64,000 nucleotides of DNA. It comes from a virus. The translations under genes and the position numbers were made by a program. Below the pieces are notes generated by a model. The model was given only the letters and a program-made list of their open reading frames with translations, had not been told where the DNA came from and searched no databases. Below, one piece after another: positions 339 to 6,400 of this stretch. Each line of letters begins with the position of its first letter. Within the stretch, counting starts at the first letter, position 1. Where the stretch lies: positions 32,001 through 96,000 of the IMG/VR virus record IMGVR_UViG_3300042987_002978, one strand, 5' to 3'.

Positions 339-509
339 TTACAATTCCAACTCGCCACCGTCAGCAACGTTTTGCTGCTGTTTTTGGGATTGGGGCTGGA
401 CTCGCATTGCCTGGATTGTGGCTTTGAGTATGGCATTTTCACGGGTCAAATTGGCGATTTGCAAAGTTAGTTCACCAATTACGACATTGACATCTGGCTG
501 TTGGTTCAT
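339..509 (-). CDS. Small coiled-coil hypothetical protein (56 aa)
   Basis: Hand-translated MNQQPDVNVVIGELTLQIANLTRENAILKATIQAMR...; start overlaps the stop of the upstream gene (ATGA coupling). Confidence 0.7.
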   Translation of the reverse strand: MNQQPDVNVVIGELTLQIANLTRENAILKATIQAMRVQPQSQKQQQNVADGGELEL

Positions 510-1483
510 ACTCTAAGCATACACCTAGCCACGTGTCTTCTGACCGCTCTCCTGTCTTTCATATGATTAAAAATATCGATATATCTGAATTCCACATCAA
601 CCACGGATTTGATGTCATCCTCAAACGGATACCAATAATCCGGATGTATTGTAATACCAATAAACTTAGTCCCGCGTTTGCAAAACAAGCCGTTGTAAAA
701 TCCGGTTCCGAGTATTCCGGCGACGTGGGTAGCAGAAGCAAAAAGTCCTATTTGTTCGTCCATTGGCATGCCAGACGGCTGAATTATTGAATAGCCGTTT
801 TCAATAAAAACACTTTCTATTTCTTCTTCAACCCAGTCCTCGTTGTAACGCAGGCGCCTTTGTTCTTTTAACCAGTCGCTGTTAACGGGATGCTCAAACT
901 TCCATTCATCTAGTTGTTTGCTAACAACCCGACGAGATATAAAAATCTTTTCTTGCTTTTTCTCCGGGTATTTTGCCTTTTCCAAGAACATGTATCGCAA
1001 TTCATTGTTTAGGCCCGGAGTTTTCGTATAGTCCTTAAACTTGTCTTGATAGTCGGCAAGGATTTGCTGCCCATCAAACACGACGACAAGACGCTCTATT
1101 ATGTAGCAAGACTTGTTGAATGAATATACGTCTATGTTCCCAGCACAGTCTTTTTTTATGAAAGACTCTGTCCATTCGCATACGTCGCACATTTGTTGGT
1201 GTTTCGGGTATACATAAGCATAATTTTCAACCCATAGATATTTTGCCGAGTGGTCATATGTGTGTTTGTAGTGAAGAAAAGACGCAAAGTATTCTTTTAA
1301 GTAGTGAAAATAGTGCGGCGTACACGTGATTATTAAATTGGTTCCGTTGAAGCATTGAATATCATCGCTTTCGACGTTCCCAATCACAACATTTTCATAA
1401 ACCCTTATGTAATTGTTTTCGTCATCAATGATTTTGTATGAATCGTACCCAATAGGCCACTTGAACCTAGCGTGGTCATCCAT
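506..1483 (-). CDS. Glycosyltransferase family 61 (DUF563-like)
   Basis: HYFHYLKE, KIFISRR, GYSIIQPSGMPMDEQIGLFASATHVAGILGTGFYNGLFC motifs typical of GT61. Confidence 0.8.
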   Translation of the reverse strand: MDDHARFKWPIGYDSYKIIDDENNYIRVYENVVIGNVESDDIQCFNGTNLIITCTPHYFHYLKEYFASFLHYKHTYDHSAKYLWVENYAYVYPKHQQMCDVCEWTESFIKKDCAGNIDVYSFNKSCYIIERLVVVFDGQQILADYQDKFKDYTKTPGLNNELRYMFLEKAKYPEKKQEKIFISRRVVSKQLDEWKFEHPVNSDWLKEQRRLRYNEDWVEEEIESVFIENGYSIIQPSGMPMDEQIGLFASATHVAGILGTGFYNGLFCKRGTKFIGITIHPDYWYPFEDDIKSVVDVEFRYIDIFNHMKDRRAVRRHVARCMLRV

Positions 1484-3453: not shown

Positions 3454-3486
3454 ATAATCATCCTACCTTTTCGTTAATGGCTGTTC

Positions 3487-6400
3487 TTAACATGCTGGGC
3501 CGCCAAATGGGCCGGCAACACACGCTCCGGCGTACGGACCGCACACTTCGTTCACGAACAGGAACTCGGTGCATGTCTCGTTTCCACTTGGGGGAGTCAC
3601 TGGCGGCGTAACGGGCGGCGTCACCGGCGGCGTCACAGGGGGTGTCACCGGGGGTGTCACCGGTGGTGTCACCGGCGGCGTCACCGGGGGCGTCACCGGG
3701 GGCGTCACCGGGGGTGTCACCGGGGGTGTCACCGGGGGTGTCACAGGAGGAGTCACCGGGGGAGTCACAGGCGGTGTGTAAATGCCATAGCAGTCATTGG
3801 GAGCATTCTGGAACGGCGACAAACAATAACCTTGGCAACAACAAATTTCGTTTACATACAAGAACTCTGTGCAAAGTTGACCGTCATTGACCGGGGGAGT
3901 CACAGGGGTTACTGGCGTCACCGGAGTCACCGGAGTAACCGGAGAACACGTTGCTCCGAGCCCGCCAGCAATGCACTCACCTACGTAGTTGCACTGTTCT
4001 GAAGCATATTGCTGCGGTGTGCATGCACCATACGACACTGGAGTCACCGGCGTCACTGGCGTCACTGGCGTTACCGGTGTCACGGGGGTCACCGGTGTTA
4101 CGGGAGTTACGGGAGTTACGGGAGTTACGGGAGTTACTGGGCTACCGCTTGAGCCGCATCCGGCAATGCAATACTTGATGTAATTGTTTGCGCCGTACAT
4201 GTATGCATATAACGTTCCTTGTGGAGAGCCAGTTGTATCTGTGGCATCAAACCAAAAAGAAATAGCCCAGGGCGCGCCTCCCAAACCCTCTTCGACCGCA
4301 TGCGGTCTCCAGTAATAAATACCTTTTGAATCTGTGCTTGTCGTACTTGCCGGGTCGCGCACTTCTATGTTTTGAATAAGCGCTTCGCCATTGCCAATCA
4401 AAATTCCTGCTGCTGAAATTTCTCCAGTCCCAGAATTCGCATTCGGGTCGAACACCATTGGTATTCCGCCAGTGTTTGATTGCAGTTGTCCGGATGCAAG
4501 AATTTCCCAATCGCCTATAAATCCTTCTGTTGCAGAAACAATACCGGTTATATCTGCGTTATCAGCAACAAGATTTCCGGCATTGTCAACTGAAAAACTT
4601 GAGCCAATGGTAAGAGAACCACCAGTTATGTCAATATTTGATGCAGTTACCGCACCGGTATTGTCTACATAAAAATCTGAACCGATTGATATTGTGCCAC
4701 CAGTGATATTGCCGGAAAATTCGCCTGCTATAGCAGTTACGTATCCACCAGAAGTTACAGAAAACGGAGCAGTTGATAATGACGCAGAACCCAACCACAT
4801 ATTTCCGGATGAATCAACGTGAAATGATGTATTGTCTGAACCGCCGATGTCAATGGTTGAACCGACGATTTGTCCGGCAAAATAACCGTCAATCGTATAA
4901 AAATCACCCGTACTTGCGCTTACCTGAGTTACCAAATCTCCAGCATTGTTGTATGCGTAAAGACCAGAGGAGTCTATTACCAATCTTGGATTGCTAGTTC
5001 CAGTCTGCAGTGTCGGAGCCGTTAAGGTGCCTTGAATCCACGCACCGTTTCGAATTATGACTTGGTTCAATTCTGAGTTGCCGTCTGCCTCAATGGTCCA
5101 TCCGCTGACATTTTGTACGTAGTTGTTAGAACGAATCGCGCCGTTCAAGACTATTTGCGCGCTCGCAGAAGCAGTGAACGGGAACGGGTCTGACGGAACT
5201 CCGGACTGACCGTTGACCGTGTACGGAATGACTGTGAAGTTATATTGTCGGCCAGGAGCACCAAGATTCTCAAATGCCGCTGATGTTTGGTTTGCTGGCA
5301 CTGTCGCTGAGTGTCGTTCGATTACGCGCACCACGTCGCCAGAGGTATGGGTTCCGATTGGGATGTCGGGTCCGACGTCGTCAAAAGTGAACGAGGACCC
5401 GGAAGCGCTCGTCAAGAAAACGTTCGTACGGTCAAAATACGCGCTTGCCGTATCATAAATGTTTATCCAGTCACCGACGCCAAATCCGGTTGAGGAACTG
5501 ACCTCAACGTATGCGATGTTGCCGTCGCGATAAATGTTTGTGATTGGATAGGTGATTGCGATTCCGACGGAGTCTTGTTCTTCTCGGTATACAACGGCCT
5601 CGTATTGGACGGCGCTGGTGTTGTCTGCAGGTTCCCAACCGACAACTACTCGGTTGCTTAAGCCTTGTACTTCCGCCCCAACCGAAGTTCCGGTCGGCTT
5701 GAGGGGCTTTGAGGAAGTACCGCGGAGGGTAAACGTCGGCACATCAGCAGCGGACAAACGACCGTAATTTGCCGCGTATTTGAGGTTCGTCGCAATGTCG
5801 GCGAAGATATCGCCAAATGTGACCTCGACCGTCTCGTTACCTGTTTCGTCTACCGCAACACCGATTGCGCTGATTATGCGTTCGCTGAACGTCCCAGTGT
5901 CAATCTCCACCAATACTTTGTCGCCGATGTCAAAGTCAAACCACGCCAGCATTTCATCGCGTTCCGTGAACTGTGCCGTAATCTGTAGTTTTCCGTCTTT
6001 GACTTGCCGCACCGCAGAGGCGGTGATGTTTGCGACGGCTGGCGCATCATCGGAGGTGTTCTCGACGAACATCTCCCTGAATCCGTAAGTTCCTGTTCTT
6101 TCTGAAATTTGACGGTCGAGATTGAACCCGTCAGAACCGTATACGACCGTTCGCAGTTCCGCCACGGATGTTCTCGTCTCAACCGACGACAACATTGGCA
6201 GACTGAACAAGAGGGCGGCAGAACCAGAAGTCAAATCATTGCCGAATGGCTCGTCAAAAACAATTGTGTCCGTCACAAAAGGACGGACCGCAATGCTTAT
6301 TACTCCGAGCGGAGAAACGTGCCAATCCACTCCAGTATTGGCAGAGACTTCGTTCAAAACATCAAGCATCGTCCTACCTACGGCGATGTTGAAGTTCCCA

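Follow-up and report, generated by a model that had tools for sequence, protein, structure and literature searches.

We analyzed a 64,000-base stretch of viral DNA (the window; bases 32001-96000 of the 104,851-base IMG/VR virus contig IMGVR_UViG_3300042987_002978), in which the gene for a tail-tip protein ending in perfect (PVT)n and (PPVT)n repeats is followed by genes for DUF6171, a two-domain 2-oxoglutarate (2OG)/Fe(II) oxygenase and a GT61-family glycosyltransferase (GT). The results suggest that the C-terminal domain of the oxygenase, which resembles prolyl 4-hydroxylases (P4Hs), hydroxylates prolines of polyproline-II (PPII) stalks in the host cytoplasm, a prediction that we consider quite probable. 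Hydroxylation of the stalk had been proposed in an earlier note on this DNA, and it is now strongly supported, still as a prediction, by the fold of the enzyme, its catalytic motifs and its strict co-occurrence with Pro-repeat proteins in related viral loci.

Stalk repeats and the genes downstream of the tail tip

The tail-tip/minor tail protein (1329 residues; 3487-7476, on the minus strand, like the other tail genes of this section and the cassette genes) is the proposed substrate. Its gene follows those for the tape-measure protein (8354-13288; PF10145) and Dit (7476-8348; PF22768), and the protein matched the minor tail protein family phrog_110 (E 3.5e-9); the score against PF14594 (Sipho_Gp37) was 25.7 bits, slightly below the cut-off of 26.2. 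Residues 1-1090 form the body of the protein, and residues 1107-1329 form a region of repeats and Cys-rich modules. Following the body are a (PVT)11 stalk (residues 1113-1145; 4042-4140), Cys-rich module 1 with four Cys (residues 1146-1178; 3943-4041), a (PVT)5 stalk (residues 1179-1193; 3898-3942), module 2 with six Cys (residues 1194-1234; 3775-3897), a (PPVT)15 stalk (residues 1235-1294; 3595-3774), and the terminal module 3 with four Cys (residues 1295-1329; 3490-3594), which is probably the distal tip.

The same three arrays were found by Tandem Repeats Finder, with a DNA identity of 80-88% between units. The peptide repeats are perfect and all DNA differences between units are synonymous, each block using three to four Pro, two to three Val and three to four Thr codons; the description of the arrays in the earlier note is thus borne out. 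Among the open reading frames (ORFs) of the 105-kb contig, the tail-tip protein is the sole carrier of Pro repeats. The word ‘extensin-like’, used in the same note, is apt by analogy, but neither Ser-Pro(3-5)/SPPPP motifs nor YxY Tyr cross-link motifs were present in the tail-tip repeats. We therefore take it to denote a likeness of mechanism, not membership in the extensin-type hydroxyproline-rich glycoproteins (HRGPs).

Downstream of the tail-tip gene, in the same orientation, lie genes for a 134-residue protein (3049-3453), DUF6171 (87 residues; 2817-3080; PF19668, 35.2 bits, cut-off 27), the oxygenase (444 residues; 1476-2810; PF13640) and GT61 (325 residues; 506-1483; PF04577, 51.1 bits, cut-off 27). 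The spacing from the tail-tip gene to GT61 ranges from a 32-base overlap to a 33-base gap, and the start of GT61 overlaps the oxygenase stop by 8 bases. The co-oriented P4H-like oxygenase and GT61 had been recognized before, whereas DUF6171, the 134-residue gene and the second oxygenase domain had gone unmentioned. The GC content is 40-42% in DUF6171, oxygenase and GT61 (506-3080) compared with 49-53% in the tail genes and the downstream gene, which suggests that the three genes were acquired as a unit. A scan for promoters and terminators gave no signal above chance. The 134-residue protein had no Pfam, PHROG or ESM Atlas match; its homologues are found at the corresponding place in L007, L016, L029, L042, L046 and other related loci, and most, not all, of the related loci have a small protein (~70-165 residues) between the Pro-repeat protein and DUF6171.

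The two-domain oxygenase and its recurrence beside Pro repeats

According to the AlphaFold2 (AF2) model of the full-length protein (predicted local distance difference test, pLDDT, 91.9), the oxygenase consists of two 2OG/Fe(II) domains in tandem. The C-terminal domain (residues ~246-444; 1476-2075) includes the PF13640 match (residues 358-441; 45.6 bits, cut-off 27) and carries the P4H-type motif H371-x-D373...H424...K434. Its best superposition was with the Chlamydomonas P4H bound to a (Ser-Pro)5 peptide (3gze; Z 22.0, root-mean-square deviation (rmsd) 2.1 over 176 residues). It also matched the Trichoplax and human prolyl hydroxylase domain (PHD) enzymes (Z 20-21.7), Pseudomonas PPHD (21.5), PBCV-1 vCPH (Z 18.7) and Dictyostelium PhyA (Z 18.7), and the top 50 entries of the structural search were all prolyl hydroxylases. 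When 29 homologues were aligned, H371 was at least 90% conserved, D373 and H424 were invariant, and position 434, which is K in the window oxygenase, was R in most of the others. The oxygenase profile matched the B. anthracis P4H (E 2e-7) with the catalytic H-x-D, H and K aligned. The model and these alignments support a P4H-type domain with a complete Fe(II)/2OG ligand motif, for which proline hydroxylation is predicted.

The N-terminal domain (residues 1-240; 2091-2810), modelled alone with an AF2 pLDDT of 90.9, has a predicted double-stranded β-helix (DSBH) fold with the motif H108-x-D110...H154-x-R156. Its best structural match was 6n1f (Z 13.6, rmsd 2.5 over 156 residues), and prolyl hydroxylases (PHD, vCPH) gave Z ~12. 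A profile search found neither a Pfam match nor a sequence relative in the PDB; across 24 sequences from three subfamilies, H108, D110, H154 and R156 do not vary. On the model, this part is a divergent second DSBH 2OG/Fe(II)-type oxygenase domain of undefined subfamily, and both domains look catalytically competent. In other phages either domain also occurs as a gene of its own, often in several copies per cassette.

Over the whole model, the top Foldseek matches were Tpa1/OGFOD1 (PDB 3kt4, 4nhy), which share the tandem double DSBH and belong to the prolyl hydroxylase superfamily. However, only the N-terminal domain is catalytic in Tpa1/OGFOD1, whereas the phage enzyme has HxD...H in both domains, the P4H-like one being C-terminal, and orients its domains differently (full-length rmsd ~20). 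Cultured phages gave no full-length relatives, only C-domain matches (cyanophage and Erwinia phage oxygenases, 24-35% identity). No relatives were found in 185,579 prokaryote species genomes, and a host or prophage was not identified by this route. Elsewhere on this contig, among the early genes and well away from the tail genes, the plus strand encodes a second, stand-alone PF13640 oxygenase (193-194 residues, 57.8 bits; G000:C1:21001-21264; L002 6701-7282).

In the collection of metagenome proteins, the family of the 444-residue oxygenase comprises 94 clusters. Scans of viral contigs with single sequences gave two distant loci for the oxygenase and none for GT61; an alignment-based scan gave 51 oxygenase loci with 35-56% identity. 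Where at least 2.5 kb of upstream DNA was available, all 28 distinct oxygenase loci had, within 4 kb upstream and on the same strand, an ORF with a Pro repeat followed by at least four Cys. Control stretches of the same loci passed in 9 of 79 cases, under a version of the test that was more permissive in that both strands were read. L048 and L049 were considered as exceptions and rejected as such, as a (FPPF)n/(PVIA)n-plus-Cys protein that lay below the first threshold is present. A common occurrence of such enzyme pairs in phages lacking Pro-rich repeats, which the earlier note had named as evidence against its proposal, was accordingly not what we saw; the data point the opposite way.

Among the repeat types beside the oxygenase were (PPVT)n, (PPVV)n, (PVS)n, (PVD)n, (PVTA)n and (FPPF)n. 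The usual gene order is a tail-fibre-like protein, the Pro-repeat/Cys-tail protein, in most loci a small protein, DUF6171, the oxygenase(s) and optional enzymes. Where the Pro-repeat protein is short, the protein encoded 5' of it matches PHROGs of minor-tail and tail-fibre proteins, and the cassette was found across several phage lineages with differing fibre architectures. When viral loci with at least 3 kb of downstream DNA were picked solely by DNA encoding at least four PPVT units, 37 of 73 had DUF6171 and 32 of 73 an oxygenase match directly downstream.

Other repeats beside the same cassette were long (FPPY/FPPF)n arrays and (PVIA)n with Cys-rich segments (L036:10150-10788; L048:8738-9160; L056). 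Further recurrent cassette genes, for example at L060:5788-6372 (cluster c3) and L062:14084-14839 (c15), encode a ~193-residue cupin/JmjC-like protein, DUF6065 and extra small PF13640 oxygenases. A radical-SAM/SPASM enzyme (PF04055 plus PF13186) is encoded in several sister cassettes, at L119:5078-5947 and, as cluster c38, in L096, L144, L162, L170 and L171. By analogy with the maturation of ribosomally synthesized and post-translationally modified peptides (RiPPs), these enzymes hint at thioether-type cross-linking of the Cys-rich tails.

It might also be that the enzymes act on the Cys-rich mini-domains, as AspH does in hydroxylating Asp/Asn, and EOGT in adding O-GlcNAc, on domains of the epidermal growth factor (EGF) type, and that the Pro repeats are plain spacers. 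Cys-rich tails (20-60 residues) were present beside the repeats in every related locus, EOGT is a GT61 enzyme acting on small disulfide-rich domains, radical-SAM/SPASM enzymes are typical of Cys-peptide maturation, and the role of the N-terminal oxygenase domain leaves room for such a target. We nevertheless consider this quite unlikely: the C-terminal domain is like P4Hs and not like AspH, the Cys tails are hypervariable, whereas the PPVx repeat stays constant, and the fusions with the hydroxyproline O-arabinosyltransferase (HPAT) family and the PF11397 GTs described below point to hydroxyproline (Hyp).

DUF6171 lies directly 5' of the oxygenase(s) in most related loci. Six Cys (C51, C54, C64, C67, C69 and C82, in the pattern CxxC...CxxCxC...CP) are invariant in 32 sequences. 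The family is large, with 10,881 representative clusters at E <= 0.001, mostly viral and of 60-100 residues. An exhaustive profile search found fusions, whereas a word-indexed search for longer fusions found none: in P0174 (463 residues) DUF6171 is fused C-terminally to a PF11397 glycosyltransferase, and in P0181 (343 residues) N-terminally to a Sulfotransfer_2-like domain (21.9 bits, slightly below the cut-off). With low confidence, we suggest that DUF6171 might bind Zn and serve tailoring enzymes as an accessory or recruiting module. No Pro-repeat cassette was found near DUF6171 in Stenotrophomonas phage Moby, cyanophage PSS2 or Synechococcus phage S-T4; DUF6171 is therefore not specific to this module.

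Glycosyltransferases of the cassette

All 50 distinct cassettes with at least 5 kb of downstream DNA carried an oxygenase, and 22 of them a recognizable GT, namely GT61 in 12, PF11397 in eight and HPAT in two. Since a GT was recognizable in only these 22, the conserved core consists of the Pro-repeat protein, DUF6171 and the oxygenase. The oxygenase and GT61, which the earlier note had treated as the pair, thus do not form the conserved one, which is DUF6171 plus oxygenase. GT61 is one of three interchangeable GTs. All 20 aligned homologues of the window GT61 also matched PF04577, and its profile had no sequence relative in the PDB. Its position varies: GT61 follows the oxygenase in the window, lies between DUF6171 and the oxygenase in L030, L041 and L046, and is on the opposite strand in L017. 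Within another cassette, GT61 is fused to a cupin-type domain (L173:1723-3321).

Three protein clusters (P0023, P0052 and P0073; 719-722 residues, 46-50% identity), full-length orthologues of the oxygenase, have an N-terminal domain of PF23452, the HPAT family (29-37 bits, cut-off 23.9). L038 and L039 also carry a PF23452-oxygenase fusion, and in L039, at 4608-6770, it follows DUF6171 and a (PPVVPVV)n-plus-Cys protein, the repeat of which has no Ser or Thr. No HPAT (PF23452) was found in the window's contig. GTs of PF11397, a family presumably built around Gnt1, the GT60 enzyme that adds N-acetylglucosamine (GlcNAc) to the Hyp of Skp1 after PhyA, stood in the GT slot of eight distinct cassettes and scored 83-89 bits in all seven tested. 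GT60 is the Skp1 Hyp-GlcNAc-transferase family and also includes a T. cruzi Thr-GlcNAc transferase (PMC6939170). There was no PF11397 gene in the window, and the PF11397 proteins of the cassettes had no sequence relatives in the PDB.

The HPAT-oxygenase fusions and the PF11397 GTs in the GT slot point to Hyp as the acceptor in such cassettes. The presence of a GT did not track the Thr/Ser content of the repeats, as Thr-free repeats were found with PF11397 (L057), HPAT (L039) and GT61 (L017); this weakly suggests Hyp rather than Thr as the acceptor. The proposal of Hyp-linked glycosylation in the earlier note therefore gains independent support from the HPAT fusions and PF11397 GTs, with the correction that GT61 is facultative. 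Known GT61 activities are the transfer of O-GlcNAc to EGF domains, of GlcNAc to O-mannose, and of pentoses to xylan or N-glycans. For the window GT61, either Hyp or the repeat Thr is a possible acceptor, and from its position we would put even chances on its glycosylating the stalk.

A further explanation is that the oxygenase hydroxylates the stalk and GT61 is an unrelated moron that glycosylates a host cell-envelope polymer, in superinfection exclusion, or another virion protein. The low frequency and variable position of GT61 among the cassettes agree with this, as do the facts that no GT61 is known to act on Hyp and that other GTs on the contig adjoin a lectin-like surface protein. On the other hand, GT61 occupies the slot used by HPAT-family and PF11397 GTs in other cassettes, the overlap of its start with the oxygenase stop and the low GC common to the island tie it to its neighbours, and the GT61-cupin fusion lies within a cassette. 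On these grounds we regard a target of GT61 away from the stalk as unlikely.

Two eukaryotic systems are close parallels of the proposed stalk hydroxylation and glycosylation. The algal/plant HRGP pathway (Cr-P4H-1, PDB 3gze/2jig; HPAT/GT95) likewise combines a P4H-type 2OG oxygenase with polyproline-II repeats, and the HPAT family recurs in sister phages as a domain fused to the same oxygenase. The pathway differs in that it acts on Ser-Pro(3-5) with Tyr cross-links in the endoplasmic reticulum and Golgi, whereas PVT/PPVT would be modified in the bacterial cytoplasm, and in that this phage has GT61 instead of HPAT as well as a second oxygenase domain. The Skp1 system of Dictyostelium/Toxoplasma (PhyA and Gnt1/GT60; PMC6939170) shares the logic of a cytoplasmic P4H and a Hyp-GT, with PhyA (6t8m) as a fold match at Z 18.7 and PF11397 GTs in the eight sister cassettes. 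Unlike the single Pro modified for oxygen sensing in Skp1, the phage substrate would offer dozens of tandem sites on a structural virion protein, and the window lacks PF11397.

Proposed stalk maturation and its wider context

In the explanation that we favour, the tail tip would carry three small Cys-rich knobs on PPII-type (PVT)n and (PPVT)n stalks, and DUF6171, oxygenase and GT61 would form a co-transcribed, horizontally mobile maturation cassette. In the cytoplasm of the host, either ahead of tail assembly or during it, DUF6171 may dock the enzymes onto the substrate as a Zn-binding accessory module, the P4H-type C-terminal domain would hydroxylate repeat prolines, the N-terminal domain may perform a second oxidation, and GT61 would then add sugar to the stalk, on Hyp or on repeat threonines. 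This would yield a glycoprotein stalk that is stiff, hydrated and protease-resistant and presents hypervariable receptor-binding tips. The analysis itself shows the repeats, the folds and motifs of the domains, the synteny and the gene fusions, and from these we infer the catalytic steps, the glycosylation site and the role of DUF6171; taken as a whole, we consider this explanation on balance probable.

Several points weigh against it. The Pro repeats and the Cys tails always occur together, so co-occurrence cannot separate them as targets. No GT was recognizable in 28 of the 50 cassettes, and glycosylation is therefore not obligatory. To our knowledge, no characterized GT61 glycosylates Hyp. 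The contig itself is incomplete (completeness ~75%). PBCV-1 P4H is the sole characterized viral P4H, and no Hyp was detected in virions (PMC7019647). Finally, about half of the (PPVT)n viral loci were without a cassette within reach, and such repeats can therefore exist without it.

The last count also agrees with an explanation in which the repeats are unmodified Pro/Thr linkers, the target of the low-GC cassette is either not a protein or belongs to the host, and their adjacency is an accident of a hypervariable insertion hot-spot that follows the tail-fibre genes. PT linkers are common in secreted bacterial proteins, cyanophages commonly carry 2OG oxygenases without an assigned role, and DUF6171 occurs in cultured phages without such a cassette nearby. 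Nevertheless, this leaves unexplained both the 28/28 versus 9/79 co-occurrence, across several phage lineages with different fibres, and the recurrence of Hyp-specific GT families; we judge it very improbable.

Going beyond stalk modification in this phage, we tentatively raise a broader proposal, the parts of which stand together. It is that a RiPP-like, widespread, modular and horizontally exchanged maturation of phage receptor-binding tips may exist, in which DUF6171 recruits interchangeable enzymes to a PPII stalk with a hypervariable Cys-rich knob. The enzyme set could include one to four 2OG oxygenases, GT61, GT60-like or HPAT-like GTs, a radical-SAM/SPASM enzyme and a sulfotransferase. 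It might then represent the first prokaryotic hydroxyproline-O-glycoprotein system, with a new GT61 activity and two chemically distinct hydroxylations.

Two viral systems bear comparison. PBCV-1 P4H A085R (vCPH, PDB 5c5t) is a virus-encoded P4H with a matching fold (Z 18.7) and is active in vitro on proline-rich repeat peptides. It is a single-domain enzyme of a eukaryotic virus with no linked substrate gene or GT, whereas the phage encodes a candidate substrate alongside. In mycobacteriophages, whose hosts are actinobacteria, phage-encoded GTs near structural genes glycosylate the C-termini of virion proteins (Freeman et al. 2023, cited in PMC12619734); the targets there are capsid and tail-tube C-termini, and no hydroxylase, Pro repeats or GT61 are involved, unlike in this phage.

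Because the contig encodes WhiB, a VanY/PG_binding_1 endolysin, a portal, a prohead protease and a PhageMin_Tail tape-measure protein, it fits a large siphovirus with a presumed actinobacterial host; no DNA-level similarity of the contig to cultured phages was found. Downstream of the cassette are genes for a HIRAN-domain protein, a ParB-like protein, a SAM methyltransferase and WhiB (L002 17046-17408, 13682-15001, 11419-12141 and 9531-10094). A SNF2/HARP-type helicase (16241-18619) and the VanY endolysin (14732-15613) lie between the tail and other structural genes, which is an unusual order. A 1077-residue protein with a C-type lectin domain and poly-Thr stretches adjoins two GT4/GT1-like genes (window 18926-24423), and a carbamoyltransferase gene lies at 26310-28016 of the window. 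A 1364-residue protein (window 37004-41098) with an N-terminal Mtd_N (major tropism determinant) domain may be a second fibre.

In the literature searched, no relevant paper turned up on phage P4H, Pro-rich fibres or DUF6171. Hydroxylation of proline with subsequent glycosylation of the Hyp is considered a eukaryotic trait, as in plant and algal cell walls, Skp1 and collagen, and we know of no substrate assigned so far to the many 2OG oxygenases of aquatic phage genomes. Glycosylation of phage virions, in mycobacteriophage, and a chlorovirus P4H are already known; this phage adds a self-contained, testable substrate-enzyme set. Here, a candidate substrate, a predicted hydroxylase and a glycosyltransferase are encoded next to one another and vary together across dozens of phage lineages, which turns the role of phage P4H-like genes into a question that can be tested directly with a defined peptide, and DUF6171 would gain its first functional context. 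The compact cytoplasmic enzymes could then be used in bacteria to produce Pro-rich peptides that are hydroxylated or glycosylated. If true, the proposal would add a new class of virion post-translational modification, one that affects the stiffness and stability of tail fibres and host recognition.

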